From Acidobacteria bacterium RIFCSPLOWO2_12_FULL_68_19 (GTDB lineage Bacteria; Acidobacteriota; Vicinamibacteria; Vicinamibacterales; UBA2999), in NCBI GenBank assembly GCA_001767525.1, contig MELF01000023.1:4682-68681 (forward strand): DNA of 64,000 bases. Direction: 5' to 3'. The notes below the pieces were generated by a model. The model did no database searches. It saw only the letters and a program-made list of their open reading frames with translations, and was not told where the DNA came from. Numbering within the stretch: position 1 is the stretch's first letter; each line of letters starts with the position of its first letter. Both the position numbers and the translations under genes were made by a program. Of the stretch, positions 6,333 through 59,386 are shown piece after piece.

Positions 6333-6406
6333 TGGGAGGTCGTTCAACGGTAGGACACGTGGCTCTGGACCACGTTATCGGGGTTCGAATCCCTGCCTCC
6401 CAGCCA
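6333..6406 (+). tRNA. tRNA-Gln (anticodon CUG), CCA encoded
   Basis: 74 nt folded by hand. Acceptor stem TGGGAGG/CCTCCCA, D stem GTTC/GGAC, anticodon stem CGTGG/CCACG with loop CTCTGGA (anticodon CTG), T stem CGGGG/CCCTG with loop TTCGAAT. U1-A72 pair and G73 discriminator are as in bacterial tRNA-Gln. Confidence 0.95.
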
Positions 6407-6773
6407 CTAAGTCGTTCACTAGCAACAACTTACGGCACGAGAGATCCGGCCCGATCAACTGGTCTTGCGCCACATTATCAGTCTCGGTATCGACACCCGA
6501 GCAACCGCTTGACGTTCAAGGGGTTAGCGAACGCCAGGGCCACGTTCGCCGATTCGCCCAGAGACACGAATGAGACACGCGGCAAATTCGATCGCCGTCC
6601 CGCGCGCGCGCCCACACCTCGTCCTGTCCGATGCCGGCGGGCGATGAGCTCGGGCCTGGATGCTGGGGCGACGATGCTATCGTCGTCGGGCCGGGGCGAT
6701 ATCGATGCGCCAAGGATGAAGGCCATCGAGAACGGATGTCGCCATGGAGCGGGCTGTCACGCGCTGAACTGCG

Positions 6774-7412
6774 ATGTCGGATTTGGTTCATCAGGTCACT
6801 GTCGACCACTCCGAGAGGCGCTCGGCATTACTGGATGCTGTGCGTCGGACCGGCGCGTTCCAGGTGCGGATGGCGCGTCTCGCGACCGGTGACTATCTGA
6901 TTGGGAACGATGTGCTCATCGAGCGGAAGTCGGTCGCCGACTTGGCCGCCTCTCTCGTCGACGGACGCCTGTTTCCGCAGGTGGCACGACTGGCTCACAG
7001 CGGCTACCGATCCCTTCTGCTGATCGAAGGCTCGGCGACCACGTCGATTCCTGATGTGCATCCCCACTCGCTCGAAGGCGCACTCGTGTCGATCACGGCC
7101 ATGTGGCGCGTGCCGGTGCTGCATTCGTCCGATGCGGAACAGTCGGCGCGCATGCTGCACTTCCTTGCCGATCAGGTGCGTGGACCGCACGAGCGAGTTC
7201 TGCGGCGATTCGACCAGAAGCCGAAACGCCTCGCATCGAGAAAGCTCTTCCTGTTGCAGGGGCTACCAGGCGTCGGTCCTGCTCTCGCGCAGCGCCTGCT
7301 CGACCACTTCGGGACCATCGAACGCGTCTTCACGGCTGACGCGTCCGCACTGGGTGAGGTCCGAGGTGTCGGTCCCAGGAAGGCCGCCCGCATCCGGGAA
7401 CTCGTTCTCTGA
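6774..7412 (+). CDS. ERCC4/XPF-type nuclease with C-terminal (HhH)2, copy 1
   Basis: 212 aa. Has the ERCC4 catalytic signature LATGDYLIGNDVLIERKSVADLAASL (GDY...ERKxxxD). The C-terminus has two helix-hairpin-helix motifs: LQGLPGVGPALAQRLLDHFG and VRGVGPRKAARIRELV. Confidence 0.8.
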   Translation: MSDLVHQVTVDHSERRSALLDAVRRTGAFQVRMARLATGDYLIGNDVLIERKSVADLAASLVDGRLFPQVARLAHSGYRSLLLIEGSATTSIPDVHPHSLEGALVSITAMWRVPVLHSSDAEQSARMLHFLADQVRGPHERVLRRFDQKPKRLASRKLFLLQGLPGVGPALAQRLLDHFGTIERVFTADASALGEVRGVGPRKAARIRELVL

Positions 7413-7475
7413 CGTGGGGCACGGCTCTATCGATCGGTTGCCTCTCCATCGCTGACGATCTATATTGATCGAGAA

Positions 7476-7889
7476 GTGGCCACACGGCGCAGCCTGCCCG
7501 TCCGAGGGCGATCGCTCCTGAAGGGCGGGCGCAAGCGTGTCCTCGTCGTTTTGTTCGTCCCGAGCGTCGAGCGTGATGGGAGGGCTCCCATCGACCAGGA
7601 TCGCTGGGTCGACGCTGCCTTGGACATGTTCGGGCGTGTGTTTGGAGGGGCGACCGCCTATCCAAAGGCGAAGGGTGTCTGGCGCGACGATGAACGAAAC
7701 GGCGCACTGGTGAAAGACGAACCAGTCGTCGTCCATTGCTACACGACGCGCGCCGACATCGAGGACGCCAGACACCTGGCGGAACTCGGGACCTTCTGCA
7801 GAACGATGGGCCGCGACGCCCGTCAGGGCGAGGTTGGGTTGGTCATTGGAGACGAGTATTTTGCGATCCGTGAGTTCACGGAGGAGTGA
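7476..7889 (+). CDS. hypothetical protein (137 aa), second gene of ERCC4 cassette
   Basis: GTG start. Non-Arg-biased composition: VLVVLFVPSVERDGRAPIDQDRWVDAALDMFGRVFGGATAYPKAKGVWRDDERNGALVKDEPVVVHCY. Tightly spaced with flanking same-strand genes. No family recognised. Confidence 0.55.
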   Translation: MATRRSLPVRGRSLLKGGRKRVLVVLFVPSVERDGRAPIDQDRWVDAALDMFGRVFGGATAYPKAKGVWRDDERNGALVKDEPVVVHCYTTRADIEDARHLAELGTFCRTMGRDARQGEVGLVIGDEYFAIREFTEE

Positions 7890-7892
7890 CAG

Positions 7893-8258
7893 ATGAAGTC
7901 GAGCCTCGACATGAACAAGATCGCTCGTGGGCTTCGCGCGGAACGCAAGGGCACAGTCTCGGTCGGCGGCGGCTACTTCGGGGCGATGCAGCTGCTGGCG
8001 GAGATCGAGGCGCGCTTCCGCGTGCCGATGGGCGGAGGGCGGGCAACGGATCCCGAGTGGACCGAACGACGGCTGGTCCCGTTGGCCCCCCGAACCCTCA
8101 AGCGTCTCGAGGCGATCACGGAAGGCGTCAGAGCGCGGAGCGGCGTGAGCGTGGAACCGATGCAGCTCGCCGCCTTGTTGCTCGAGAAGACGACCGAACA
8201 GCTCAACGACGATGACGTGAGGGATCTAGTCACTGGCCAGCGGCGTGCGAGTCGGTGA
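7893..8258 (+). CDS. hypothetical protein (121 aa), third gene of ERCC4 cassette
   Basis: ATG 4 nt after the previous stop, with GGAGGAG upstream. Sequence includes MNKIARGLRAERKGTVSVGGGYFGAMQLLAEIEARFRVPMGGGRATDPEWTERRLVPLAPRTLKRLEAI. No family recognised. Confidence 0.55.
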   Translation: MKSSLDMNKIARGLRAERKGTVSVGGGYFGAMQLLAEIEARFRVPMGGGRATDPEWTERRLVPLAPRTLKRLEAITEGVRARSGVSVEPMQLAALLLEKTTEQLNDDDVRDLVTGQRRASR

Positions 8259-8262
8259 TTGA

Positions 8263-8577
8263 GGGCAAACGCCCACGCATCTGGATGCCACAGACATTCA
8301 AGTTCAGGCCGACGCTGGACCATGTTCACGAACCGCAAGAGACCAGCTCGACACGGATGAGGCCGAAATCCGCCGGCGATATGCCACACGCCTCTTTCAG
8401 CAGCGCCTGCACCAGCGCGAGTTCCGCGAGCGCGTCGTGCGGGCGTACCAGCATCACTGTGCAGTCTGCCGCCTGCGGCGCGATGAGCTTCTCGACGCGG
8501 CTCACATCGTACTGAAGCGGTGGCGTCGAACACTCGAACAAAACCGAGCGGAGCGGCACGGAGCGCCACCGGTCCGC
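8263..8577 (+). pseudogene. HNH (HNH_2-type restriction-endonuclease-like) fragment, truncated at the islet junction
   Basis: In-frame LDTDEAEIRRRYATRLFQQRLHQREFRERVVRAYQHHCAVCRLRRDELLDAAHIV matches the FR..V..AY...CAvC......L.AAHI core of HNH_2 nucleases. There is no N-terminal domain or start codon. Homology is lost after AAHIV, and the frame runs into the tRNA-fragment repeat. Confidence 0.5.
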
Positions 8578-8625
8578 GGCTCTTTGGACCACGTTATCGG
8601 GGTTCGAATCCCTGCCTCACCGCCA
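8578..8625 (+). repeat. degenerate copy of tRNA-Gln 3-prime half (att-like)
   Basis: GGCTCTTTGGACCACGTTATCGGGGTTCGAATCCCTGCCTCACCGCCA versus tRNA 6361-6406: a 2-nt insertion in the anticodon-loop part and two substitutions in the acceptor arm. No 5-prime half upstream. Confidence 0.75.
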
Positions 8626-8636
8626 TTTAAGTTGTT

Positions 8637-8888
8637 CTATCCATTCACATTTCCTCCGAGCTCAGGCCCCGTCTCCCCCAGGTCTCCAAGATTCCTGCAG
8701 GACGAGGGCTGATCCAGCAGCCGAATCGCACCGTCCAGCGCTGCCGGACTCAGGTGCATGTACCGCTGTGTCATGCCGAGCTCACCGTCGCAGACGCTGA
8801 TGACGTCGAGCACACGTTCGAGTTCCGATCGATGGTCGTGCCCACAGGTCACGCCCTGTATGCGCGAGAGCGCGTGCCTGAGGGGCAA
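8637..8888 (-). pseudogene. tyrosine-recombinase (integrase) C-terminal remnant
   Basis: GHDHRSELERVLDVISVCDGELGMTQRYMHLSPAALDGAIRLLD resembles the box II region (H.LRH ... LGH....T..Y.HL) that carries the catalytic Tyr. There is no room for the remaining roughly 300 aa. It lies directly after an att-like repeat. Confidence 0.45.
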
Positions 8889-9230
8889 GAGGGCTACGAG
8901 TTCTCCGTCCTCGGCGACTTCGACGCCAACGCGTGGGACCTATTCAGGTTGCTGTACGACCGGATTCAGCACGGACTCGCCGTCCGCCACGTGGAACGAG
9001 GCGAGCTCGGCTGGCGGATCACGGACGCACGTCATCTCGTCGGCCGCATCACGTGGGATCCTGACCGCGCCGGGGAGGTTCCGCTGTTGGTCATCGACGG
9101 CCGACCCTTCACCTGGGATCAGGTGGGCCGGATGTTGATGTCCTTCGAGGGCTTCACGCTTCGGGCGTTCGTGGACGACAGCATCGAGGTCATCGGAGGC
9201 CCACTTCTGGACGAAGAGGGGAAAGTCTGA
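8754..9230 (+). CDS. hypothetical protein
   Basis: GYEFSVLGDFDANAWDLFRLLYDRIQHGL...LVGRITWDPDRAGEVPLLVIDGRPFTWDQVGRMLMSFEGFTLRAFVDD looks protein-like. The N-terminal about 26 codons overlap the integrase remnant on the other strand, so ATG 8832 is the more likely start. Confidence 0.45.
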   Translation: MHVPLCHAELTVADADDVEHTFEFRSMVVPTGHALYARERVPEGQEGYEFSVLGDFDANAWDLFRLLYDRIQHGLAVRHVERGELGWRITDARHLVGRITWDPDRAGEVPLLVIDGRPFTWDQVGRMLMSFEGFTLRAFVDDSIEVIGGPLLDEEGKV

Positions 9231-9296
9231 ATCGGGAATCCTTTCCGCTTGATTCTCGTCTGGCGACGATGACATCGTCGTCGTGCGGAATCGGAT

Positions 9297-9944
9297 ATGG
9301 ACGCGCGAAGAACGAAAGGGTCGCTTGCTTCAAGGATCACTACGTCGCCGGGCATCCCTGACTCTGTCCATCAGCTCGCTGTCGACCACTCCGAGCGCGA
9401 CTCGGTATTGCTGGACGCGGTGCGTCGGAGCGGCTGGTTCGACGTGCGGATGGCACGTCTGGCTACCGGCGATTACTTGGTGAACGGCGAAGTGCTGGTC
9501 GAGCGAAAGACCATTCGTGACCTGGTCGCCTCGCTCGTTGACGGTCGCCTGTTTCCGCAAGTGGCACGATTGGCTCACAGCCCACACCGATCGCTGCTCC
9601 TGATCGAAGGTCCGACGCCTTTCTCGCTGCCGGACGTGCATCACCACTCGGTGGAAGGAGCACTCGTTTCGATCGCCGCCATGTGGCGGCTTCCCGTGCT
9701 GCAATCATCCGACTCGGAACAATCGACCCGCATGCTGCGGTTCCTGGCGGAGCAGGTGCGCGGACCACAGGAGCGAATCCTGCGGCGATTCGACAGGAAG
9801 CCGAAACGTCTTGCGTCGAGGCGGCTTTTCCTGCTGCAGGGGCTGCCAGGAGTGGGACCCGCGCTCGCACACCGGCTCCTCTGCCACTTCGGTTCAATCG
9901 AGCGGATCGTCACCGTGGACGCCGCCACACTGGCCGAGGTGTGA
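9297..9944 (+). CDS. ERCC4/XPF-type nuclease, copy 2, ended by an in-frame TGA before the last HhH
   Basis: Paralog of 6774-7412 (RMARLATGDYLVNGEVLVERKTIRDLVASLVDGRLFPQVARLAHS...LLQGLPGVGPALAHRLLCHFG). TGA at 9942-9944 sits where copy 1 has CGA (Arg). The homologous GIGARTAARIRELV continues in frame up to 10049. Confidence 0.7.
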   Translation: MDARRTKGSLASRITTSPGIPDSVHQLAVDHSERDSVLLDAVRRSGWFDVRMARLATGDYLVNGEVLVERKTIRDLVASLVDGRLFPQVARLAHSPHRSLLLIEGPTPFSLPDVHHHSVEGALVSIAAMWRLPVLQSSDSEQSTRMLRFLAEQVRGPQERILRRFDRKPKRLASRRLFLLQGLPGVGPALAHRLLCHFGSIERIVTVDAATLAEV

Positions 9945-10306
9945 GGCATCGGCGCAAGAACGGCGGCGCGTATTCGAGAGCTCGTTGGCAGTCCATCTCC
10001 GGGCGGCTCTATCCACCACCTCGCACAGGAGGACCAAACACGCGGCTGACGAACGTCGAGCGGAGACCACATAGCGATGCGAAAGAAACCAGTCGGCACC
10101 AGAAAACCGAAGGCGCTTCGCGAGCGTGTCGAGGCTCTGAGGAGAGCCGGCGTGATCGCGTGGAGCGGACGGCGGCTGCGACCAGCGAAGCCCGCGGGGC
10201 AAGGTCCGTGGCATCAGGACTATCGCCGACGTGCTTGTCGAGAACCGCGAGTAACGGTGTCTTCAACGCGAGTGCTTCGGTTAGCCGTCGTCCTGGAGGA
10301 GGTCCA

Positions 10307-10816
10307 TCACGAGCGATCTGTCGATGTCGCATTCGCTGGTTCTGCGCCTTCTCCCACGTGCGCGAGCGATTCGCGAATCAGAGCGGGTGCGATGCGGAAG
10401 CCCTCCGCGACGAGCGCGTCAAGCACGGGCTTGAGTGCAGGGAGCAATGCCCGTCGTCGCGCGTGAACGAGCACGCCGAGTGTTCCCCGCACGGCGAGAC
10501 CACGCGCCTGTGCCACCTTCCGGCCCACTCGCTCGTCGATCAGAAGGAGATCGGCCCGAAGAGATTCGGCGACGAGTATCGCCGCGGTCTCTCCTGGATC
10601 CAGCCCAAGGTCTGACTGTGGCGAGGGCTCATCGACGACACGCAACCATCGCGCATGGCGGAGCGCGTCAACGCCAGGCGCGGACGGACGCCGTTCCACG
10701 GCTTCATCCCACACCGCTCTTGGCACCACGACGTCCTCAAAGAGCGCTGGAAGGAGGTGAAGGGCTCCGACCCGCGAGAGATAGATCAGGGGCGAGCTGT
10801 CTGCGACGACCAGCAC
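10307..10816 (-). CDS. DUF3368 PIN-like toxin
   Basis: MLVVADSSPLIYLSRVGALHLLPALFEDVVVPRAVWDE...DPGETAAILVAESLRADLLLIDERVGRKVAQARGLAVRGTLGVLV is the typical DUF3368/COG2405 pattern. It lies downstream of a UPF0175 partner. Confidence 0.8.
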   Translation of the reverse strand: MLVVADSSPLIYLSRVGALHLLPALFEDVVVPRAVWDEAVERRPSAPGVDALRHARWLRVVDEPSPQSDLGLDPGETAAILVAESLRADLLLIDERVGRKVAQARGLAVRGTLGVLVHARRRALLPALKPVLDALVAEGFRIAPALIRESLAHVGEGAEPANATSTDRS

Positions 10817-10822
10817 GCGGCC

Positions 10823-11077
10823 TCAGCGCTGGCTCTTCGGAATGGCTCCGAGCTCTTGCCTGAACTCTTCGACGTCGTGATCGATGGCGTAGAGGCCGTG
10901 CCGGCCGGCCTCGATGAGGAAGTCGTCGAGCGTCATGTCGAGTGCGCGTGCCGCGGAGGCACGAGTCAATCGGCCGGCTCGTACTTCGTCGATGACCAGG
11001 AGAAGACGCGCGCGCCTGGCCAATTCGTCGGTCGGCTGCTCAGAGAGCGGGCCCGGAATCTCGACTGTGATCTCCAT
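10823..11077 (-). CDS. UPF0175-family antitoxin
   Basis: MEITVEIPGPLSEQPTDELARRARLLLVIDEVRAGRLTRASAARALDMTLDDFLIEAGRHGL fits the UPF0175/COG2886 pattern. Start taken at internal ATG 11077, not the track start 11272. Confidence 0.75.
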   Translation of the reverse strand: MEITVEIPGPLSEQPTDELARRARLLLVIDEVRAGRLTRASAARALDMTLDDFLIEAGRHGLYAIDHDVEEFRQELGAIPKSQR

Positions 11078-11280
11078 GGAACTTCTCATTCCGATTGTAG
11101 CCGTACCATCCGCTCCCAGCGGCATCCTGAAGCGAGGCTGCACAGAGCGACAGGGCCTGAGACACAATGAGACATTTTGTGCGTGAACAAAGCAGAACGG
11201 AGGGGAGCCTACCGAAGCGATAACGTCGAAAACTGGAACAAGACAGAGCGGGGCGGCACGGGCCGCACCCATTCACCGCT

Positions 11281-11324
11281 CTCTGGACCACGTTATCGGG
11301 GTTCGAATCCCTGCCTCCCAGCCA
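11281..11324 (+). repeat. exact copy of tRNA-Gln 3-prime half (att-like)
   Basis: 44/44 nt identical to 6363-6406 (anticodon loop through CCA). Upstream sequence cannot form the anticodon stem or 5-prime half. Confidence 0.9.
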
Positions 11325-11616
11325 AGTTCGAACCCCGGGTCGCACACCGACAGAACATCAATCATTTCGAACACTTCCACGCTCGAATACATGCAGTCGG
11401 ACTGGGAACGTCAAACCGATCTTGGACACTTTGGCGACTAAGAACTCAGCCAATTGTCGAAATTCCTAATGTTGTCGCCGGGCCGGTCCGCTTCAGCACT
11501 CGCGAGAATTGACCCGCGTCTGCTCGCCGAGAATGGACCACTCGCAGCAGGCTCGCATCGTGTATCTGGGGCTGACGTGCGTGCATGCTATCGTATCGAA
11601 TCTGTCAGGAGGCGCT

Positions 11617-12402
11617 GTGCGCTACGCCGAGTTCCGTGATCGACTCGAAGATGCGCTTCAGGAGGCGGGGCTCTTCTTCCAAGGCGCTGATCGGCACGTC
11701 GAGACGATTGACCTCGCGCACGCCGCACGGAGCTGGAAGGTTCATCTCTTCGGAGCGGCACTTCCGAGCGCAGATCCCTTCCACGTTTCGGCGGAGATCG
11801 GTTTTGAGTGGAGTCCCGTCGATGCGGCTCGCGCGTACACCACCGAAGAAGACCTCCTCACGGAACTCGTGGGCAGGAGGCGGCGACCGATCAGGACGGA
11901 GCGCAGGTGGACACGGATAGACCTTTCGCTTCACGCGAGCCTCCCGTACGGTTCGACGACGTCGATGCCGGACTCCCGCGTTCTCGGCTCGTGGACGGCT
12001 TCTGTTGTAGAGAAGGCTGATGCTGCCTTCACCGACATCGAGGAGAAGAAAGGGCGCGTCGTGGCCGTCCTCGGCGGGCACGGGGACGTCGAAGTGCACG
12101 CGCACTGCAAACCTGACGGCGTCATTTCGCTGAGGGCGGTGGCCATCTCCGGCTTCCGCTTGGTTCGTGTGCCCCGGGTCTGGGACGATCCCGAGCGCCG
12201 CGAGGCCGAGAGGGACCTCGCCGACCTTGGTGGACTGGCGCGGAGGCTCAAGACCGCACTCGATGAGTGGACGAGGAGTGTCTCGGAACTCGCGACCTGG
12301 ATCCGGTACTCGCCGCCGCCACCGGAAGCGAAACCAGCCGAACCGTGGGTCGAGGATCAATCCGAGGACGACAATGACAGCGGGCCGGAGACGACGCACT
12401 GA
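11617..12402 (+). CDS. hypothetical protein (261 aa), convergent with SWIM-SNF2 helicase
   Basis: GTG at 11617 preceded by AGGAGG (11607-11612). Sequence includes VRYAEFRDRLEDALQEAGLFF and an acidic, Pro-rich C-terminus. No family recognised. Confidence 0.5.
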   Translation: MRYAEFRDRLEDALQEAGLFFQGADRHVETIDLAHAARSWKVHLFGAALPSADPFHVSAEIGFEWSPVDAARAYTTEEDLLTELVGRRRRPIRTERRWTRIDLSLHASLPYGSTTSMPDSRVLGSWTASVVEKADAAFTDIEEKKGRVVAVLGGHGDVEVHAHCKPDGVISLRAVAISGFRLVRVPRVWDDPERREAERDLADLGGLARRLKTALDEWTRSVSELATWIRYSPPPPEAKPAEPWVEDQSEDDNDSGPETTH

Positions 12403-12503
12403 CTGAGAGCGCGCCGATAGCGGCGTTGTTGCGCTGGTTCGCCGTGTGCGGCTGCCTCGATGAAGCGGCGCGACAGTTTCTCTGCGCGATCGATCTTGCT
12501 CAA

Positions 12504-15263
12504 CTACGCGTTCGGTCGAACGCGCCGAGTGGGACCTCTTCCGGTGGCCGGCGGTGTGGCGGCGGCCTGGAGCAGCTGCGCCATCCCGGAGAAGAGCGCT
12601 CCCAACGTCGACGCGGCTTCAGGCGGCGCCTCGATGACCAATCCGCCGCTGGCGGTACGTCGCACGGTCACGCCGGCCACGAGACGCTGGATGGCGGCAG
12701 CCGAATCCGCTGGCTCGGGCGCGTTGGCGATTGTGGCGAGCGCCACGTCATGCGACTCGTCCCCTGCCGCCACAACCGCCTCGATCTCGCGCTCGGCACC
12801 ATCGTTCTCGGCCACGCTGACATCCTCAGCGCGGCTCGGCGCGGGCGAGATCGCCGGCACGACGATACGCTCGATGCGGGAGAGAAAACTTCCGGAGCGC
12901 TCGAAGACCACCGCGTCGGTCGTCCCGTCGAACAGTCCAGTGAAGAGCGCCTGCTTGGACCCGACGAGCTCGGCGATCCGTGACTCGATTCCCGGCTCGC
13001 TCACCAGGTTGTAGACGTCAATCGGGCGGCGCTGTCCGAGACGGTAGATCCGGCCGATGCGCTGCTCGAGCACGGCGGGATTCCAGGGAAGCTCGATGTT
13101 GATGCAGGCGCTCGCGGCGCGTTGCAGGTTGAGGCCGACGCCGCCGGCGTCGGTTGCGAAGAGCACGCGGCAGGCGGGGTCGTCGTGGAAGTCGACGATG
13201 TTCTGCGTGCGCCGCTTCTGGCCCTCCTCGCCGGTGAAGAACGCCGGTCTGACGCCCTCTCGCGAGAGCTGGTCGCGCGTCGCCCAGTGCGCGAGTCGGA
13301 GCATCCGCCGCCACTGGCTGAACACCACCACCTTGCGCCCTTCGGTCAGCGCGAGCTGACCGATCAGCTCACGCAGTTCCACCAGTTTCGGGCTCGCCAG
13401 TCCCCGAAGCGTGGAGTCGGTGGGCCGCTCGATCCGCGACAGGTCGGGCCAGACCTGTTCGAAGCGCAGCTGGGCCAGGCCGTTGGCGATGATGCGCTGC
13501 GTGGTGAGCAGCGTCATCAGACGGAGGAACTCCGCCTGCGTGAGCGGACGCCGCTTTGCGCGGCCGAGGATCTGCGCGATCGGCATGGTGAGCGCGTCGT
13601 GCTCGTCGATCTGCTCCGCGGTCATCTCGATGGGAATCCGCGTGTCGGTCCGCGCGGGCAGCTGCGAAAGCACCTCTCGCCGCACGCGCCGGACCATGCA
13701 CACGGCTAGACGGGTCCGCAGCGTCTCGAGGTTCCGGGCGCCGCTGATCTCCGTTGTTCCATCCACGGGCGTGGTGTGCCACGCGGCCAGGCGCCATTTC
13801 GGCTCCAGCGCCAGGTCGTCGACCCACTCGACAATCGACGCGAGCTCGTCGAGCCGGTTCTCCATCGGTGTGCCGGTCAGCACGAGACGGTACGGTGGAT
13901 CCAGGCGCTTCACGGTCAGCGCGGTCTTCGTCGCCCAGTTCTTGATCCGCTGGGCCTCGTCGAGCACTACGATGTCGGGCGCCCATTCGCGAACGACGTC
14001 GATGTCGCGAATGAGCTGCTCGTAGTTGCCCAGGAGGAATCCGCGCCGACACGCCTCGAACGCCGCGCAGCGCTGGGAGGGTGTCCCCTCGACGACGGTG
14101 GCCGGAGCGTCGGTGAAGGCCTGCCACTCACGAAGCCACTGCGGCTTGAGCGCGGCGGGGACAACGATGAGGCCACGGCGGACGCGGCCAGCATGCCAAA
14201 GAGCGTGGCAGGCGGCAATCGCCTGCGCGGTCTTGCCGAGACCCATATCGTCGGCAAGGAGCAGGCGTCCCCGCACGAAGAACCGGTCAACGCCGTCGCG
14301 CTGATAGGGATAGAGCGATTGCTTGAGGGTGTGCAGCGCGCGGTGCAGGCGCGTCCGGGTGCTCGCGGTCTGCACCTGACGCGCGAGCCGCACGCGCTCT
14401 TGCTGCAGCAGTGCGTGCAGTGCCGGCTCGCTGTTGCCGTCGCTGAGCACGCCGAGCAACCGATCCACGAGCGTCCGCCGCTGCTGCAGCCCTTCGGGAA
14501 TCGCGGCGGTCCAGCCACGTCCCTTCGTTGAGCGCAGCCAGCGCCGCAGACCGCGATCGGGCACACCGTCGACCCAGCGCACGCGCGCCAGCCAGTGGCC
14601 AAGGCCGGTCAGCGGGCGGACGGGATCCCACCGCAACGGTGCCGGCGCGGGAGCCTCCTCGCGTTCGATATCCACCCGACGCCGCTTCGAGACCACGTCC
14701 TCGAGGACGGCGACGAGGTGCTTGCACAGCCCGAGCGAGTTCCGGAGGAAATCGGCGCAGTCGCAACTGCCGTCGAGCGGCTCGATCCGACGGAGGAGCG
14801 TGCGGTACGGGCGTGCGCGCGACCCACGGCGCCTGGTCGCGTACAGACCCAGCAGCCGGCTCCGTGGACGTCCGACGATCTGAATCTCGTCCACGTGAGT
14901 GGACGCGCAGCGGCGAAGCACCGCCTCGAGCGCGTCGCGCTGGATGGGCCAGTCGCCTCCCTGCGTGACCGACAGGACGTGGCGCACGATGCGCTCGGCC
15001 GGCACGCCGCCCGTTCGCCGGCGCGCGCGCGCGAGCAGCGTCTGGTAGGCCTCGCTCTCGGTGATGGCGATCGTCTCGGGCTGAGATGAACGACTCTGCA
15101 TATCTTCCCCGTTGTCGGAAGTTGGGATCGGTGTCGGCGAGTCGACGTATTCTTCCACAGACGCGATAAACGGAGCTGGGACGTCGTTTTGAACTCCGAT
15201 ATCGACGGTGCGAGGTGGCCGCATGGCGAAGAAGCGTCGAGCACAGGCCGTGGGCATGAACAA
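12504..15263 (-). CDS. SNF2-family helicase with N-terminal SWIM zinc finger
   Basis: SWIM motif CDCADFLRNSLGLCKH. Helicase motifs LLADDMGLGKTAQAIA (I), VLDEAQRIKN (II), LTGTPMENRLDEL (III), LFATDAGGVGLNLQ (V), ELPWNPAVLEQRIGRIYRLGQ (VI). The N-terminal boundary is uncertain (see the frameshift finding); ATG at 15101 is an alternative start. Confidence 0.85.
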   Translation of the reverse strand: MFMPTACARRFFAMRPPRTVDIGVQNDVPAPFIASVEEYVDSPTPIPTSDNGEDMQSRSSQPETIAITESEAYQTLLARARRRTGGVPAERIVRHVLSVTQGGDWPIQRDALEAVLRRCASTHVDEIQIVGRPRSRLLGLYATRRRGSRARPYRTLLRRIEPLDGSCDCADFLRNSLGLCKHLVAVLEDVVSKRRRVDIEREEAPAPAPLRWDPVRPLTGLGHWLARVRWVDGVPDRGLRRWLRSTKGRGWTAAIPEGLQQRRTLVDRLLGVLSDGNSEPALHALLQQERVRLARQVQTASTRTRLHRALHTLKQSLYPYQRDGVDRFFVRGRLLLADDMGLGKTAQAIAACHALWHAGRVRRGLIVVPAALKPQWLREWQAFTDAPATVVEGTPSQRCAAFEACRRGFLLGNYEQLIRDIDVVREWAPDIVVLDEAQRIKNWATKTALTVKRLDPPYRLVLTGTPMENRLDELASIVEWVDDLALEPKWRLAAWHTTPVDGTTEISGARNLETLRTRLAVCMVRRVRREVLSQLPARTDTRIPIEMTAEQIDEHDALTMPIAQILGRAKRRPLTQAEFLRLMTLLTTQRIIANGLAQLRFEQVWPDLSRIERPTDSTLRGLASPKLVELRELIGQLALTEGRKVVVFSQWRRMLRLAHWATRDQLSREGVRPAFFTGEEGQKRRTQNIVDFHDDPACRVLFATDAGGVGLNLQRAASACINIELPWNPAVLEQRIGRIYRLGQRRPIDVYNLVSEPGIESRIAELVGSKQALFTGLFDGTTDAVVFERSGSFLSRIERIVVPAISPAPSRAEDVSVAENDGAEREIEAVVAAGDESHDVALATIANAPEPADSAAAIQRLVAGVTVRRTASGGLVIEAPPEAASTLGALFSGMAQLLQAAATPPATGRGPTRRVRPNA

Positions 15264-15264
15264 C

Positions 15265-15429
15265 GACGGACAAGCGGGTCGCTGCGTTGACCGGCAGCAC
15301 GACGCCCTGAGGTTTGCTGAAGAGGACGGTGGCGTAACAATCGCCGAGGGTGGTTGTTGACGTCACCTCACACGGTGTGCTGTGACCGAGCCGATCGAGG
15401 AGCTTACGAGTGCGGCGTACGACGACCAT
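15265..15429 (-). pseudogene. DUF6933-like leader ORF in a different frame from, and abutting, the SNF2 ORF
   Basis: MVVVRRTRKLLDRLGHSTPCEVTSTTTLGDCYATVLFSKPQGVVLPVNAATRLSV resembles the DUF6933 N-terminus as I remember it (..KLL..LG....STT.LGDWYA......q.lvL.v...trL.vv.P). After about 15265 this frame becomes Arg-rich nonsense, while the similarity seems to continue in the SNF2 frame (MPTACARRFFAM...VPAPFIASVEEYV). Confidence 0.4.
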
Positions 15430-15601
15430 GGGTCACTCGTCCCCGTTGGTCGGGGCGCACCGGACCGGCCGCTGCGCCCTCAGGCGTCGGGGCTGGCGGG
15501 CGTTCCATGCAGGCGTCAGCGTCCGAGCGCGCAGTAGCCCCGGCAACTTCGTGATCTCGATGTTGCAAACTACGGCACCTTGCGATGCGCCGTCAGGCGC
15601 G

Positions 15602-15898
15602 TCAGCGGTCGATTCTCGATCGCCAGTAATCGGGGCGGCGGCTTTGATGGGCGAGGACCTCGACGCGCACCACATCGGGCGGCAGGCTGTAGATCAGCGA
15701 GAACGGGAAGCGCTGGAGACCATACTTGCGTAGATCGGCGTCGACGGAGATTCCAATCTCTGGATGCGCCAGCAGAATGTCGAGCGCCCGTCGAACATCC
15801 GCGCCGAAACGCTGGCCGAGGCCAGAGACCTGATGCTCGTAGTATGCCGCCGCCTCAATGAATTCCAACTCCGCTTCCGGGTGGAATTCAAGTCTCAT
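15602..15898 (-). CDS. ParE/RelE-family type II toxin
   Basis: 98 aa. MRLEFHPEAELEFIEAAAYYEHQVSGLGQRF...RFPFSLIYSLPPDVVRVEVLAHQSRRPDYW is the plasmid-stabilisation ParE-like pattern. A 4-nt overlap joins it to the upstream antitoxin. Confidence 0.8.
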   Translation of the reverse strand: MRLEFHPEAELEFIEAAAYYEHQVSGLGQRFGADVRRALDILLAHPEIGISVDADLRKYGLQRFPFSLIYSLPPDVVRVEVLAHQSRRPDYWRSRIDR

Positions 15899-16128
15899 CG
15901 ATTCAAGCGCGCGCGAAGGTTTTCGAAGACACGGTCGCCCGAAACGGGCTGGACCTTCCCGTCAATAACCTCGCGGTGTCGCCGTTGGGCCTCGTCGATC
16001 CACGCCAGCTCAACGTCGGCCTCGACTGGTCCGTCGAGTTCGGCAAGCAGTGCGCGAATGAGGCCCGTCCTGTCGTCCGAGTCCAACGATCGGATCTGTG
16101 CTTCCAGTTCGGCAACAACTCTCGACAT
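15895..16128 (-). CDS. addiction-module antitoxin (putative addiction module component type)
   Basis: 77 aa. VAELEAQIRSLDSDDRTGLIRALLAELDGP...AWIDEAQRRHREVIDGKVQPVSGDRVFENLRARL is typical of the small helical antitoxins paired with ParE/RelE toxins. Confidence 0.7.
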   Translation of the reverse strand: MSRVVAELEAQIRSLDSDDRTGLIRALLAELDGPVEADVELAWIDEAQRRHREVIDGKVQPVSGDRVFENLRARLNR

Positions 16129-16468
16129 GTCACCTCCGTACAGCCAGCGTTGGCCGTCTCCATATTCTACAGCCGTGACCCACGGTGGCAGATTGACCGT
16201 CCCCCTGGCATTCCGGCCGTGCGCCCATCGGCTTGATCTACTCCTTGTGGGAGACGTTCCGAGTGCACTCCGGAGATTCCCTTCGATGAAACTCGGGGAA
16301 GCCCTTTACGTCGAGTGTCATTTCGAGTGTCATTGCGCTGGCAAAATACGAAAACGGACGCGAACGGACGAAAGCCGACGACAGAAGGCGAAAACGCTAA
16401 ATCGCTGGCTTCTCGCGAGTTCCAGCGACACGGCCCATGTCTATTGGTGTTTCGTGAGGTTGGCTCGG

Positions 16469-16489
16469 CGAATCCCTGCCTCCCAGCCA
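16469..16489 (+). repeat. short copy of tRNA-Gln 3-prime end (last 21 nt)
   Basis: CGAATCCCTGCCTCCCAGCCA is identical to 6386-6406. Upstream sequence diverges. Confidence 0.6.
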
Positions 16490-16742
16490 AATACGCCTCT
16501 GACTGTCAGTCATTTAGTCGCGGGTGATCGCGCCATCCCCGATTACGTGGTCTGCGAACACATTCTGAACGTTTCACGGCTGCGTTGGTAAACGTCACCA
16601 CGAAGTTGCTGGACGTCAAGGAGTTGGACGGTTCCGTCACGACGGTCCGATTGAGTAGGGACCTCGAGCTCTTGACGAAAAGTTGACGAGCTGGCCGCTA
16701 TGACTGCGTCCGTACGCGGTCCGGTCAGTCCCTCCGGTATTC

Positions 16743-18731
16743 TTGGGCGCGGCATTGACCAAACCATCTGCACGCGCGTCCGCGTACTACTCCAGACCCG
16801 TGGATCTCTTTCTCGCTACCGATCCGTACGAGGTGCTTGGTGCTCTGAGTGCGGCACACATCTACGACCTCGAAGTCGAGCAGCGTCAGGCGTGGGAAGA
16901 GGAGTTGAACATCCTAAGAGTCGCTCTACGGGGGCTATCTGGCACTCTCTGTCTCGAATTCGACGTCCCGCGCCTTGGCAGCCGAATCGACGCCGTGCTG
17001 GTTTCTGGGCCAGCAATCTTTCCCATCGAGTTCAAGTGCGGAGAACGTCAGTTCCGTCTCCCCGACTACAACCAGGCGTGGGACTACGCGTTGGACCTCA
17101 AGAACTTTCACGCTGCGAGTCACGACGCACCGATTTGTCCCGTCCTCGTGGCGACGGAATCTGACACCGCCGATGAGACCTGGCAGGGCCCATATCCGGA
17201 CGGCGTGCGGCCGCCGTATCGTTGCGGCGCTCGCCACCTCGGCGATGTTCTTCAACGTGGTCTCGCACTGACCAGCGGACCTCCGATCGACGGCGAGGCT
17301 TGGGGAGCCGCTCCATATCAGCCGACGCCAACCATCATTGAGGCGGCCCGGGCTCTCTACGCGCGACACTCGGTCGAGGCGATTTCGCGCAGCGACGCCG
17401 GCGCCAAGAACCTACGCGTCACGTCAGCCAGCGTCGAGGAGATCATCGAGCGCTCCCGAGGCGACCGTGACAAGTGTGTCGTCTTCGTCACGGGCGTACC
17501 CGGCGCCGGGAAGACGCTCGTGGGCTTGAACGTGGCGACACGGCGGCGGATGTTGGGAGAAGCCCGTGCGGTCTATTTGTCAGGAAACGGTCCGCTGGTG
17601 GCTGTTCTTCAGGAGGCGCTCACGCGTGACGAACTCGCGCGCATCGGACACACCGAACGGAAGGGGGCGGTGCGCCAGAGGGTGAAGCCGTTCATTCAGA
17701 ACGTCCACCACTTCCGGGATGAGGGCGTGCGCACGACCATTGCCCCTTACGACCACGTGGTCATCTTTGATGAAGCACAGCGCGCGTGGACGCGGGCGAA
17801 GACCGCCGACTTCATGAAGCGTCGGAAGAAGATTGCGACTTTCGACCAGTCCGAACCGGAGTTCCTTATTTCCTATCTGGACCGGCACGATACGTGGGCG
17901 GTTGTCATCTGTCTCGTTGGAGGCGGGCAGGAGATCCACACGGGCGAGGCGGGGATCGGCGAATGGCTCGAGGCCGTTCGGCTCCACTTCCCGCACTGGC
18001 GTGTTCATGTTTCACCGAATCTCACCGACTCTGAATACGCGGCGCAGTCACCTCTGGAGCGCCTCGCCGCCGTGGCGTCGATCGTCTGGGACGATCGACT
18101 CCATCTCGCAACGTCAATGCGATCGTTCCGGGCGGAGAAGGTGTCCGCGTTCGTCAAGGCTGTTCTCGACAGTGACGTAGTCTCGGCCCGAACACTGCTC
18201 CGGGAGGTTACGCGGCGGTATCCGATTGTCGTCACGCGCGACCTGGCACGCGCGAAGACATGGATCCGCAGCCACGCTCGTGGTTCCGAGCGCTACGGGC
18301 TGGTCGCATCGTCGCAGGCCCAACGCCTCAAGCCACACGCGATCGATGTCCGCGTCAACGTCGATCCGGTCCAGTGGTTCCTGAACGACAGGCATGACAC
18401 GCGATCGAGCTATTACCTGGAGGATGCCGCAACCGAATTTCAGGTGCAGGGTCTCGAGCTCGACTGGGTCTGCGTGACGTGGGATGCAGATTTGCGACGC
18501 CATGCGGAGTCATGGCGCTACCACTCGTTTCGCGGAGACGGATGGACGACAGTCCACAAGGAAGACCGGAAGCGCTATCTGCTGAACGCCTACCGCGTTC
18601 TGTTGACACGGGCGCGCCAGGGAATGGTCATCTTCGTGCCGCCTGGCGACGAGTCGGACCCGACTCGTGCTCCGTCGTTTTACGACGACACCTACCAGTA
18701 CCTCACCGGCCTTGGAGTCGCCGAGGTCTGA
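16743..18731 (+). CDS. DUF2075-family P-loop NTPase with N-terminal PD-(D/E)xK-like nuclease motif
   Basis: 662 aa. N-terminus RIDAVLVSGPAIFPIEFKCGE (a D...E.K restriction-endonuclease-like motif) and QAWDYALDLKNFH. Walker A VTGVPGAGKTLVG and Walker B VVIFDEAQRAW. ICLVGGGQEIHTGEAG is typical of DUF2075. Confidence 0.8.
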   Translation: MGAALTKPSARASAYYSRPVDLFLATDPYEVLGALSAAHIYDLEVEQRQAWEEELNILRVALRGLSGTLCLEFDVPRLGSRIDAVLVSGPAIFPIEFKCGERQFRLPDYNQAWDYALDLKNFHAASHDAPICPVLVATESDTADETWQGPYPDGVRPPYRCGARHLGDVLQRGLALTSGPPIDGEAWGAAPYQPTPTIIEAARALYARHSVEAISRSDAGAKNLRVTSASVEEIIERSRGDRDKCVVFVTGVPGAGKTLVGLNVATRRRMLGEARAVYLSGNGPLVAVLQEALTRDELARIGHTERKGAVRQRVKPFIQNVHHFRDEGVRTTIAPYDHVVIFDEAQRAWTRAKTADFMKRRKKIATFDQSEPEFLISYLDRHDTWAVVICLVGGGQEIHTGEAGIGEWLEAVRLHFPHWRVHVSPNLTDSEYAAQSPLERLAAVASIVWDDRLHLATSMRSFRAEKVSAFVKAVLDSDVVSARTLLREVTRRYPIVVTRDLARAKTWIRSHARGSERYGLVASSQAQRLKPHAIDVRVNVDPVQWFLNDRHDTRSSYYLEDAATEFQVQGLELDWVCVTWDADLRRHAESWRYHSFRGDGWTTVHKEDRKRYLLNAYRVLLTRARQGMVIFVPPGDESDPTRAPSFYDDTYQYLTGLGVAEV

Positions 18732-18745
18732 CTGAATCGGGCCGT

Positions 18746-19213
18746 TCAACGCCTTAATAGACGCTCATCGAAATCGAATGGATGTGGATCGCCGACGCGA
18801 ACGGCTCCGAAATCCTGGTGTCGCGGATTCAACAGGTAGTTCAACTCCGATTCAATGACAGCGCTCGGCACTTTCAGGACCGCTGACCTGCCCGCCTTAA
18901 CCCATTCGTCACCAATCAGCTGGAGCTCGGGCGGAGCCGGATACGAGCGCCAGTTAGGGGGAAGGCGCTTCGAGTCGAGACGCTCCACAAGGGCTTCATC
19001 GAACGTACAGGCGATGAGGACGTACGCACTCAGGATCGACCGGCGCCGCAGGTGGACTAACAGCTCCAACGTCGCTAACGCCGCGCTCTCGGACGCGTAG
19101 ACGAGGGGCGTGCCTGGTGAATTCCAGCGTCCGCCTTCGAGACGAGCGCCCTCGCCATCGAAAGCGTTCGCGGCGTGTCTGGCCTTGACGATCCGCCAAG
19201 CCGTAATCGCCAC
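18746..19213 (-). CDS. RES-domain toxin
   Basis: AWRIVKARHAANAFDGEGARLEGGRWNSPGTPLVYASESAALATLELLVH...VLKVPSAVI carries the R-E-S residues pattern. GTG at 19213 shares one base with the TAG of the upstream antitoxin. The track N-terminal extension is rejected. Confidence 0.85.
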   Translation of the reverse strand: MAITAWRIVKARHAANAFDGEGARLEGGRWNSPGTPLVYASESAALATLELLVHLRRRSILSAYVLIACTFDEALVERLDSKRLPPNWRSYPAPPELQLIGDEWVKAGRSAVLKVPSAVIESELNYLLNPRHQDFGAVRVGDPHPFDFDERLLRR

Positions 19214-19731
19214 TACGAGAAGACGCCGTGCTCGAGGCGGCCGACCAGCCGCTCCACCTCTTGAACACCTAGCTCGGTACGCGCAAGGTCCAAAGGAATA
19301 CCGCCGCCCAAGGCCGGCTGTGCTGTTGTGAGCCATTCCACTGCGGCATCGCGATCGCCTTCAAAGAGCTGGAGCGCCTTTCCGAACAGTCTGGCGGCCC
19401 GTAGAAGGCGATCGGATTCATCCGAAAGGAATCGGCTGTCTGTTTTGCGGCGCGTCAGCGTGCGGCGTGGAATGTTGATGAGGTCGATAAGGCGATCAAC
19501 CGACAGCGAAGTGTTTCGCTGGAATCGCTCGAACGCGCGATACGGGATGCCGCGCTGAACCGCTCGGAGCAAGCCTGGCGCGTCGAACGTATCGAGGCCC
19601 AACAGGACGACGTACGCGTGCGGCCCGGGCTGACCCGCTCGGAGCTGCTGCCGAAAGCGATCGAGGTCCTTGGTGGTCTCGGTTCCCTCATGAAGCGCGG
19701 CGGCTGCGGTCTTGGCCATATGGCCATCCAT
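19213..19731 (-). CDS. Xre/MbcA/ParS-type antitoxin (DUF2384) of the RES toxin
   Basis: GIPYRAFERFQRNTSLSVDRLIDLINIPRRTLTRRK...SDRLLRAARLFGKALQLFEGDRDAAVEWLTTAQPALGGGIPLDLARTELGVQEVERLVGRLEHGVF. Start at ATG 19731 or 19719. Confidence 0.85.
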   Translation of the reverse strand: MDGHMAKTAAAALHEGTETTKDLDRFRQQLRAGQPGPHAYVVLLGLDTFDAPGLLRAVQRGIPYRAFERFQRNTSLSVDRLIDLINIPRRTLTRRKTDSRFLSDESDRLLRAARLFGKALQLFEGDRDAAVEWLTTAQPALGGGIPLDLARTELGVQEVERLVGRLEHGVFS

Positions 19732-19871
19732 TATGCGCCATTTGCGCCCTTGACGAACACTTGACAGATTGCGCACGAAGGGGCCGTCCCCGACCGGAGA
19801 CGCCCGACGATCTGCCCGATTTTCCTAAGGAAACCGAAGCAACCCAGAATCACCCACGTCGATTGGGCCGC

Positions 19872-19915
19872 CTCTGGACCGCGTTATCGGGGTTCGAATC
19901 CCTGCCTCCCAGCCA
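19872..19915 (+). repeat. copy of tRNA-Gln 3-prime half, right boundary of the islet array
   Basis: 43/44 nt identical to 6363-6406 (A to G at 19881). No 5-prime half; preceding bases cannot pair as an anticodon stem. Confidence 0.9.
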
Positions 19916-19960
19916 CACCCCTCCGTTGACGGCCCACTCCAATCGACGATAATCGGCGCC

Positions 19961-59210: not shown

Positions 59211-59386
59211 GTGGACCCCCGCGGAAGAGGCGGTCTGACGCGAAGGTCGAGATGATTCGTCAATCGGGAGGCGTTGTCAACTGCTGCGGGATCAGCCGCC
59301 GGCGAGCGCGCCGACGAGTACGCGTACACCGCTCATGCACCCCTTTGTCGAGAGCCACTATCATACGGCTCGAGGATGACGCCGGG

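Follow-up and report, generated by a model that had tools for sequence, protein, structure and literature searches.

What has accumulated behind the tRNA-Gln gene of this acidobacterium, and how did it get there? The sequence analysed here, called the window throughout, is a 64-kb stretch of a contig from Acidobacteria bacterium RIFCSPLOWO2_12_FULL_68_19 (MELF01000023.1), in which a complete tRNA-Gln(CUG) gene is followed, over 13.5 kb, by four partial copies of itself. We consider it likely that these 13.5 kb arose by tandem accretion of four small islets without an integrase gene, resembling cis-mobilisable elements (CIMEs) and by now partly decayed, at the 3' end of tRNA-Gln(CUG). Our confidence that any of the islets is still mobile is much lower. 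A preliminary description of this DNA had read the partial copies as attachment (att) duplications bounding four stacked foreign islets that lack an intact integrase, and this core reading is upheld by repeats that are confined to the array, an integrase stub, a GC content below that of the flanks and related genomes in which the same site is a hotspot. Position numbers are those of the window, and L-numbers such as L014 are labels of related loci or contigs. Copy 1 is the tRNA-Gln gene, copies 2 to 5 follow it, and islets 1 to 4 are the segments between successive copies.

The ladder of tRNA-Gln repeats

6333-6406, + strand: copy 1, intact tRNA-Gln(CUG) with encoded CCA, the attL core of the array (ARAGORN; Rfam RF00005, 58.1 bits)
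8578-8625, + strand: copy 2, degenerate att copy of 48 nt (34/34 at 8585-8618 within a gapped 63-nt match at 8575-8637, 87%)
11281-11324, + strand: copy 3, att copy, 44/44 to the tRNA 3' part (blastn-short)
16469-16489, + strand: copy 4, att copy, 21/21, starting in the T loop (blastn-short)
19872-19915, + strand: copy 5, att copy, 43/44 to the tRNA 3' part (blastn-short)

Only one full tRNA had been expected, and one is what ARAGORN predicts across the whole window: tRNA-Gln(CTG) at 6333-6406 on the + strand, which is also the sole Rfam match between 5500 and 21000 (58.1 bits). When the tRNA was compared with the window by blastn-short, four partial copies were found downstream of it, all on the + strand and in the orientation of the tRNA, with start-to-start spacings of 2219, 2699, 5165 and 3426 bp. 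The 44-nt copies start at nucleotide 31 of the tRNA, the first base of the anticodon loop as judged from the sequence and the anticodon position given by ARAGORN, and the 21-nt copy starts at nucleotide 54, within the T loop. Together with the degenerate copy 2, which by eye has a 2-nt TT insertion in its anticodon-loop part and two substitutions near its 3' end, three of the four copies start at nucleotide 31 and one at nucleotide 54, and every copy extends to the encoded CCA. A tRNA 5' half was found at none of the four fragments (ARAGORN, Rfam). The five-copy ladder, as first described with its coordinates, its spacings and its lack of 5' halves, is borne out in every part. In the rest of the 64 kb the next-best blastn-short matches to the tRNA are exact but no longer than 12 nt (E at least 0.2), with the exception of an inverted 15/16 match at 16537-16552.

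Co-oriented repeats of a tRNA 3' part that start at canonical sublocations are the pattern left by elements whose tyrosine integrases target tRNA genes, and four segments framed by five att cores at one target gene are the pattern of tandem accretion. Integration sites in tRNA and tmRNA genes reportedly fall into sublocation classes, a scheme associated with Williams (2002) in which the anticodon loop and the T loop are the classical two. The window conforms in that its blocks of identity extend from the 3' end of the gene back to the anticodon loop (44 nt) or to the T loop (21-22 nt), and it differs in that both sublocations are used at one tRNA gene.

Two further core-like sequences lie in the left arms of islets. 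One, CCACATTATC at 6470-6479, is about 64-73 nt past the tRNA and has a counterpart, CCACGTTATC, in the corresponding arm of L090. The other is the inverted match mentioned above, a 15/16 copy of tRNA nucleotides 36-51 about 50 nt past copy 4. Decoys of these kinds could be extra core-type binding sites or older att relics.

Arms, integrase traces and cargo of the islets

The features of the four islets and of the core genes on either side are as follows.

4630-6096, + strand: left core flank, gltX (glutamyl-tRNA synthetase; Pfam tRNA-synt_1c 1e-103 and Anticodon_2; GC3 0.92)
6407-6600, + strand: islet 1, non-coding left arm with CCACATTATC at 6470-6479 and motif A, GAGACACGAATGAGACA, at 6561-6577, 155 nt past the tRNA end
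6774-7412, + strand: islet 1, ERCC4a, intact short-XPF-type nuclease of 212 aa, ERCC4 plus (HhH)2 (Pfam ERCC4 3.5e-26, HHH_5)
7476-8258, + strand: islet 1, hypothetical genes 7476-7889 (137 aa) and 7893-8258 (121 aa), without family match
8510-8625, + strand: islet 1, right-arm remnant (8510-8577) followed by degenerate copy 2, 82.8% identical over 116 nt to 11210-11324, without motif A
8646-8783, - strand: islet 2, C-terminal stub of a tyrosine integrase, about 46 aa, with the catalytic-Tyr region MTQRYMHLSPAALDGAIRLLD (tblastn)
8782-9230, + strand: islet 2, first gene, DUF7686/DUF7713, 5'-truncated (Pfam DUF7713 1.5e-20, DUF7686 1e-19)
9297-9944, + strand: islet 2, ERCC4b, with a CGA>TGA nonsense change inside the second HhH (215 aa against 250 aa in L014)
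10307-10816, - strand: islet 2, DUF3368 PIN-like toxin, intact (Pfam DUF3368 8e-12)
10823-11077, - strand: islet 2, UPF0175 antitoxin, intact (Pfam UPF0175 3.5e-9)
11150-11324, + strand: islet 2, right arm with motif A, GAGACACAATGAGACA, at 11159-11174, 122 nt before the repeat, then copy 3
11617-12402, + strand: islet 3, hypothetical gene (gene call), without family match
12504-15263, - strand: islet 3, SNF2-family helicase of 919 aa (Pfam SNF2-rel_dom 5e-35, Helicase_C)
15602-15898 and 15895-16128, - strand: islet 3, ParE-like toxin and Unstab_antitox antitoxin (Pfam on the identical genes in L001 and L084)
16313-16489, + strand: islet 3, right arm with motif C, GAGTGTCATTTCGAGTGTCATT, at 16313-16334, then copy 4
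16490-16700, + strand: islet 4, left arm with the inverted core-like 16-mer at 16537-16552 and motif B, TTGACGAAAAGTTGAC, at 16672-16687
16743-18731, + strand: islet 4, DUF2075 or Schlafen-group-3-helicase-like ATPase (PADLOC PDC-S41 9e-272 over the full length; Pfam SLFN-g3_helicase 1e-80)
18746-19213/19336, - strand: islet 4, RES toxin (Pfam RES 9e-31)
19213-19719/19776, - strand: islet 4, Xre/MbcA-type antitoxin (Pfam Xre_MbcA_ParS_C 4e-16, Xre-like-HTH)
19750-19915, + strand: islet 4, right arm with motif B, TTGACGAACACTTGAC, at 19750-19765, 122 nt before the repeat, then copy 5
19925-20719, + strand: core resumes, conserved promoter region and SBP_bac_11 gene (19961-20719; Pfam SBP_bac_11 1e-28; GC3 0.91)

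In composition the islets stand apart from their surroundings, with a GC content of 61.8-65.6% against 71.9% in gltX and 69.0% in the right flank, a modest contrast, and with ORF GC3 values of 0.72-0.84 against 0.89-0.92 in the flanks. The array shows both foreign composition and variable presence among relatives.

An element that targets tRNA genes is expected to carry its integrase gene next to attL. In the array there is only the 46-aa stub, which lies directly after copy 2, the canonical place for a minus-strand int gene beside a tRNA, and is 62% identical to a full-length integrase in L005 (E 4e-10) and 54% identical to the L008 integrase (E 2.5e-9). It is the sole significant match in the window to the integrases of relatives (tblastn), and the C-terminal remnant that had been noticed just after copy 2 is therefore real. 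The stretches after copies 1, 3 and 4 gave chance-level tblastn alignments only with four full-length integrases of relatives. Weaker look-alikes had also been proposed at about 6480-6545 and 16545-16640; these did not survive comparison, with chance-level tblastn scores and no Pfam match, and the first of them falls in a non-coding left arm that is conserved across species. A Phage_integrase profile search, which had been suggested as a check, was run in part, on three reverse-strand frames after copies 1-4. It returned no Pfam match even for the genuine stub, most of which lies beyond the PF00589 model; tblastn with full-length integrases of relatives was the informative test. Two relatives have a full-length PF00589 integrase that directly abuts tRNA-Gln (L011, 4e-28; L017, 3e-26). 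Full-length integrase of the stub's own family is found beside tRNA-Ser(GCT) in L005 (4420-5660), and a near-full-length homologue of it is beside tRNA-Ser(GCT) in L008 (4238-5323). The tRNA-Ser(GCT) and tRNA-Gln genes share a 19-nt identity in the T arm (tRNA-Gln nucleotides 49-67), which may explain target switching among related integrases.

Three kinds of tandem motif were distinguished near the ends of the islets: motif A is GAGACAC-N3/4-GAGACA, motif B is TTGACG-N5-TTGAC, and motif C consists of GAGTGTCATT twice. Motif A lies 155-157 nt past the tRNA end on the left and 122-124 nt before the 44-nt copy on the right. As a pair at this fixed spacing it is present in the window (6561-6577 and 11159-11174), L014 and L090. 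The pair also occurs in L096 and L105, L004 has the left motif only (the contig ends), and the right-hand spacing of 122-124 nt holds in L092, L096, L105 and L135 too. Motif B brackets islet 4, at 183 nt past copy 4 and 122 nt before copy 5, and these are its two occurrences in 64 kb. Shuffling gives an expectation per 64 kb of 0.02 for motif A and 0.13 for motif B, and the observed numbers are far above both. Motif C is found in the window before copy 4 (16313-16334), with no left counterpart in islet 3; elsewhere it occurs in L005, L007, L014 and L097, where it closely follows tRNA-Gln or an att copy, and in L104, where ERCC4 begins about 1 kb downstream of it. Islets 2 and 4 have right arms that can be aligned with each other over some 130 nt. 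The left arm of islet 1 is about 91-92% identical to that of L004 and 74-77% to that of L014, and Rfam assigns no RNA family to it.

We interpret these motifs as putative arm-type protein-binding sites of attL and attR. On this reading, islets 1 and 2 would form one composite unit, because copy 2 between them is degenerate and without a motif, islet 4 would be a second unit with both arms, and islet 3 would keep the right arm alone.

The cargo consists of toxin-antitoxin pairs together with nuclease and helicase genes, in agreement with what had been claimed from inspection. ERCC4a matches the short XPF of Aeropyrum (2BGW/2BHN) over residues 8-211 (E 1e-27), and the GD...ERK...D columns are invariant across 16 members of the ERCC4 family. 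It has both hallmarks of a short XPF, the GDXnERKX3D motif and a C-terminal (HhH)2, whereas ERCC4b has lost the (HhH)2 end through its nonsense codon. The two genes (both Pfam ERCC4 and HhH) are 76.6% identical over 624 nt. They are genuine paralogues, as the preliminary description had it, and its proposal that islets 1 and 2 are related holds. Likeness to the archaeal short XPF of Aeropyrum pernix extends to the full-length alignment, the ERCC4 nuclease domain with (HhH)2 and the motif; ERCC4a differs in being bacterial, in lying on mobile islets and in being often paired with a DUF7685/7686/7713 protein, with defence or upkeep of the element as its candidate roles. The first gene of islet 2 is without the Cys-rich N-terminus of about 48 aa that is found in its homologues of 201-202 aa in L014 and L096. 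Islet 1 has one small ORF besides its two hypothetical genes, and the latter are without a match in Pfam, PADLOC, NCBIfam and PHROGs. In L097 and L098, too, ERCC4 is followed by two ORFs, there of 150 aa and 121 aa, and the 121-aa gene of islet 1 has 84% nucleotide identity to L096 2708-3168.

For the SNF2 helicase of islet 3 there is a weak SWIM zinc-finger match, below the Pfam cut-off, and PADLOC gives generic helicase-core matches only (ZorD, DpdE and DrmD-like). The islet-4 ATPase matches the PADLOC model PDC-S41 from end to end (9e-272). That model describes a candidate system only, and its homologues elsewhere are not linked to tRNA genes. We looked for islet 4 as a unit in other genomes and rejected the candidates, as the PDC-S41 homologues in L178-L180 share only the ORF and have no tRNA linkage; the gene is therefore cargo and lies outside the integration machinery. 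In the window the RES gene (18746-19336) has an intact ORF, and gene calls include it in L088 but not in four otherwise matching contigs (L084-L087), a difference that may be due to gene calling or to a polymorphism.

The nuclease and helicase genes (short-XPF ERCC4-HhH, SNF2 helicase and PDC-S41) are likely to have a defence function. The ERCC4, DUF7686 and hypothetical genes match no named system in PADLOC, NCBIfam or PHROGs, and no mention of DUF7685, DUF7686 or DUF7713 was found in the literature searched. Among the islet ORFs scanned with Pfam, PADLOC, NCBIfam and PHROGs there was no recombinase, relaxase or transfer gene. PHROGs gave no match for the eight islet ORFs scanned, bar a weak nuclease match, and the structural, replication and packaging genes of a prophage or phage satellite are not seen.

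The locus in relatives and a recurrent ERCC4 islet family

The gltX product is 62-88% identical in amino acids to homologues in metagenome-assembled genomes (MAGs) of Acidobacteriota/Vicinamibacterales, and the host is a Vicinamibacterales-like acidobacterium. In every relative with enough sequence tRNA-Gln(CUG) lies downstream of gltX, and the DNA past it differs in each of them. This comparison was made by ORF-level blastp of the downstream regions, an all-against-all tblastx having been set aside as too noisy at this GC content. Six relatives have tRNA-Gln repeat ladders of their own: two 22-nt copies in L006, a 21-nt copy 82 bp past the tRNA in L008, a 43-nt copy in L014, a 44-nt copy in L090, and further copies in L105 and L135. 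Over the first 70 nt or so past copy 3 (11325-11395), the left end of islet 3, there is 82% identity to the DNA behind the final 22-nt copy of L006 (17533-17601); beyond this stretch the two loci have unrelated genes.

Islets 1 and 2 are members of a recurrent family of integrase-less elements of 2-3 kb. This family carries a short-XPF (ERCC4-HhH) nuclease, often with a DUF3368/UPF0175 pair, is bounded by tRNA-Gln and its 44-nt copy, and shows conserved tandem motifs in its left and right arms. Of 858 ERCC4 protein homologues at E<1e-10, those with at least 65% identity and available flanks are nearly always beside tRNA-Gln or the 44-nt copy. The unit in L090 is complete at 2.77 kb and without an integrase, and reads in order tRNA-Gln, left arm, DUF7685/6/13, ERCC4, DUF3368, UPF0175, right arm and 44-nt copy. 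L014 and L096 carry a unit of the L090 type, L075 shows its start, and the integrase-less unit of about 2.7 kb is found in L014, L090, L096 and L105; the islet-1 version, ERCC4 with the 150-aa and 121-aa genes, is that of L097 and L098. No integrase was found next to an ERCC4 cassette in about 90 ERCC4 loci. The 44-nt att has no match in IMG/VR, and a 28-nt version compared with the viral collection hit only a phage tRNA cluster, which is irrelevant here. We found no account of a miniature integrase-free ERCC4-HhH islet family in the literature searched.

Other arrangements were seen around ERCC4 genes and att copies. L105 (3674-8218) has two tandem ERCC4 islets with a 44-nt att between them, as in the window. 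In L135 (5760-10873) amine oxidase and cytochrome c genes are found on an islet that has a 23-nt copy at one end and a 44-nt copy at the other and is followed by a core-like permease. In L092-L095 (ERCC4 7001-7798; att copy 10501-10544) the right end formed by ERCC4, DUF3368, UPF0175 and att is joined to a DnaJ-GrpE-Hsp70 operon and SLFN_AlbA_2, and past the att copy there are a large serine recombinase, DUF4268 and a type I restriction-modification specificity subunit. An ERCC4 gene that is 55% identical lies in L132 (67-3402) in a 3.2-kb stretch with no ORF above 229 aa, which has tRNA-Ser(GGA) at one end and a 23-nt repeat of that tRNA's 3' end at the other; mini-islets of this kind thus exist at another tRNA.

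Comparison of islet 2 with its relatives shows that the ERCC4 islet family has moved from one species to another. Against L014, whose gltX is 83.2% identical, the islet-2 core (8782-11280) reaches 96.2% identity, and against L075, whose gltX is 69.8% identical, it reaches 91.8%; the UPF0175 protein is 100% identical between the window species and the L014 MAG. The high identity to L014 stops at the att copy on the right and at 8782 on the left, and homology to L014, L090 and L096 begins at exactly that position. Left of 8782 the window has the integrase stub, and in its place these three have the left arm and the 5' part of the first gene. Islet 2 of the window has therefore lost, through a single deletion, about 48 codons of this gene together with most of the integrase gene. 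The segments had been described as a decayed graveyard, each too small to be intact. The first part of this stands for islet 2, which is truly decayed, with its integrase stub, 5'-truncated first gene and CGA>TGA nonsense change in ERCC4b next to an intact toxin-antitoxin pair. The second does not, for an integrase-less unit of about 2.7 kb recurs with conserved arms.

At the right end of the array the homologue of the 19961 gene keeps its right-hand synteny, at 80-86% nucleotide identity, in L186 (from the same MAG as L014) and in L181-L183. To the left of it these contigs have a block of CarboxypepD_reg, DUF6152 and Rieske-cytochrome b genes. Homology to L181 and L186 starts at 19925 and 19948, the former only 9 nt past copy 5.

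Toxin-antitoxin and helicase genes also abound on the other side of gltX (window 2344-3846; L001 1137-6178, upstream of the window start). That side includes a SEC-C protein with a weak Xre_MbcA_ParS_C match, Xre/RES, ParD and a HicB-like gene, and also a second SNF2 helicase (with DUF3670) and its 319-aa partner. A window gene at 59252-60673, 53 kb from tRNA-Gln, has a homologue with 84% amino acid identity only 9 kb from tRNA-Gln in L008 (20812-21468), which hints that far more than 13.5 kb may differ between these genomes at this locus.

Origin of the array and comparison with known systems

In the accretion model an islet would enter by tyrosine-integrase recombination between an attP that carries the tRNA 3' part and either the tRNA gene or an existing att copy, and each such event would rebuild the tRNA and leave the displaced 3' copy at the far end of the islet. 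Two integrase specificities could have been involved, one with a crossover in the anticodon loop that would leave the 44-nt repeats (islets 1, 2 and 4) and one with a crossover in the T loop that would leave the 21-nt repeat (islet 3). The islets retain att cores and have no recombinase. As in CIMEs, genes for integration and transfer are missing from the scanned islet ORFs and both attL and attR are kept, as core repeats for all four islets and as matched motifs in both arms for the composite of islets 1 and 2 and for islet 4. It is from this combination that we infer CIME-like behaviour. Such islets would not be self-mobile, and a cognate integrase from another element could excise or integrate them; alternatively, they could be exchanged by recombination through their conserved arms. 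The toxin-antitoxin pairs (DUF3368/UPF0175, ParE/antitoxin and RES/Xre) would plausibly explain why the islets persisted after integrase loss. Mobilisation by the integrase of a related element, in cis or in trans, is putative, the one indirect indication being the identity of the islet-2 core between species.

Several observations weigh against this model. The 64-kb window holds no intact integrase (tblastn with integrases of relatives), and neither some 1.8 Mb of related loci nor the viral collection yielded an integrase-bearing ERCC4 islet; a helper integrase for these islets is hypothetical, as is the binding of the motifs by an integrase. Copy 2 has lost motif A, and islet 3 is without a left motif. 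The left arm beside the tRNA diverges like core DNA (92% L004, 74-77% L014), which fits long residence better than recent insertion. Every contig shown with an identical gltX, SBP or UPF0175 gene, from at least eight samples, has the same array, with the exception of L014-type contigs, and neither a polymorphism in islet number nor a circular junction was seen among contigs with identical proteins in these samples; from this the array looks fixed in the population. An empty site, with gltX, tRNA-Gln and the 19961 gene adjacent, had been predicted for related genomes and did not turn up: relatives in GTDB genomes identified by gltX have no homologue of the 19961 gene within 10 kb, and where homologues of that gene occur in relatives their left neighbour is CarboxypepD_reg and not tRNA-Gln. 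A rearrangement with its breakpoint at the end of the array (window 19916-19960; 9900-10015 in L186 as in L181) is therefore part of the history of the locus.

Some of these points would also suit a history in which the islets are a pure graveyard, that is, dead and chromosomally fixed remnants of larger integrase-bearing elements whose site-specific mobilisation has ceased, the islet-2 copy having reached another species through homologous recombination (for example transformation) anchored in the tRNA, att, arm and ERCC4 sequences. We regard this as possible but distinctly the less probable account. It is consistent with the identical array in all contigs of the population, with real decay in islet 2 and copy 2, with the lack of an integrase in the window or in any family member and with the core-like divergence of the left arm. 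However, genomes in which gltX is only 70-83% identical have in common an integrase-less unit that keeps both arms and a constant spacing of the motifs, a conservation that is hard to reconcile with functionless debris, and the highly identical segment stops exactly at the att copy. A different reading concerns the paired motifs alone, which might be operators for UPF0175 or Xre antitoxins at both islet ends instead of integrase arm-type sites. The right-hand motif A does lie upstream of the UPF0175 operon, motif B lies beside the Xre start and contains TTGACA-like hexamers, and the left-hand motifs are upstream of the first cargo gene. We nevertheless think this unlikely, given that L105, in which neither a UPF0175 nor a DUF3368 homologue was found, has motif A pairs, that motifs A and B are both 122 nt from the att core despite unrelated toxin-antitoxin genes, that about 130 nt of right arm can be aligned between islets 2 and 4, and that motif C lies directly past tRNA-Gln or an att copy in four genomes with differing cargo.

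The ERCC4-HhH islets of 2-3 kb could conceivably be a distinct, persistent class of miniature integrase-free elements at tRNA 3' ends (tRNA-Gln, and tRNA-Ser in L132), a speculation to which we attach little weight. One possibility within it is that they are obligate satellites whose arm motifs hijack the integrase of an unseen helper; another, more radical, is that their own archaeal-type short-XPF nuclease serves insertion or homing. The claim that these mini-islands are autonomous mobile elements, with short-XPF and DUF7685/7686/7713 proteins driving insertion or homing at tRNA-Gln, seems to us very improbable. It draws on the finding that ERCC4 homologues of at least 65% identity are almost always at tRNA-Gln or a 44-nt copy and never beside an integrase, on the analogous 3.2-kb ERCC4 islet at tRNA-Ser(GGA) and on the invariant nuclease motif. 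Yet nucleases of the XPF family cut DNA without rejoining it, the repeats start at classical tyrosine-integrase sublocations and an integrase stub is fused to the islet-2 cassette. Moreover, ERCC4 similarity does not follow motif type (L097 and L104 carry motif C), islet 4 shares the arm architecture without an ERCC4 gene, and ERCC4 is also cargo of larger islands. Nothing beyond the repeats themselves speaks for the fragments being decayed local duplications of the tRNA, or a dispersed tRNA-derived repeat, and not att scars. Except for the ERCC4 paralogues, the segments that the copies delimit have unrelated contents, no 5' halves are left and the copies begin exactly at the anticodon loop or T loop, and the repeat is absent from the other 50 kb and always linked to tRNA-Gln in other genomes. 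The single tRNA, the confined repeats, the linkage to tRNA-Gln and the unrelated segments effectively refute this last proposal, and its probability is negligible.

Tandem accretion of CIME-like islets is thus the explanation we favour, and it makes the window a clean and well-delimited case of island accretion at a tRNA gene in the Acidobacteriota, a phylum in which mobile elements have barely been described. The pieces of the array are not random wreckage. One of them belongs to a recurrent family of very small integrase-less islets that has passed from one species to another. This widespread miniature family, ERCC4-HhH islets with conserved arms and no integrase, is the less ordinary part of the finding. 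It can now be tested whether mini-islets are mobilised in trans and which integrase reads the arm motifs, and also whether the bacterial short XPF and its DUF7685/7686/7713 partner act as a defence module. The understanding of integration at tRNA genes as such is unchanged.

The closest parallels are the CIMEs of ICESt1-related elements in Streptococcus thermophilus (Pavlovic 2004 and Bellanger 2011, as reviewed in PMC5704250). There, CIMEs are elements that have lost their integration and transfer genes and kept attL and attR, and accretion is the integration of a newcomer into an att site that a resident element carries, leading to tandem arrays. The window shares the loss of integration and transfer genes, the kept attL and attR and the tandem build-up, and persistence aided by toxin-antitoxin pairs is plausible. 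In contrast to the streptococcal elements, those of the window are 2-5 kb, lie at an acidobacterial tRNA gene and have no known conjugative partner. One integrase-less form recurs across genera with conserved arms and is not a one-off deletion product, and the mobilisation of the islets is putative.

The genomic islands at ssrA in Dehalococcoides (PMC3146451) offer a second parallel. There, several islands stand in tandem downstream of a single small-RNA gene, each marked off by a short direct repeat of the 3' end of ssrA, the downstream region is hypervariable between strains, and about half of the islands (15) are without an integration module and were proposed by the authors to be CIMEs. 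The window resembles them in its tandem order, 3'-end repeats, loss of integration modules and hypervariable region. The Dehalococcoides islands differ in having a tmRNA target, the serine recombinase DsiB and reductive dehalogenase cargo, where the window has tRNA-Gln, the stub of a tyrosine integrase and cargo of defence and toxin-antitoxin genes. The type of structure is thus already known, and the array of the window is an ordinary though clear case of islands piled up at one site.

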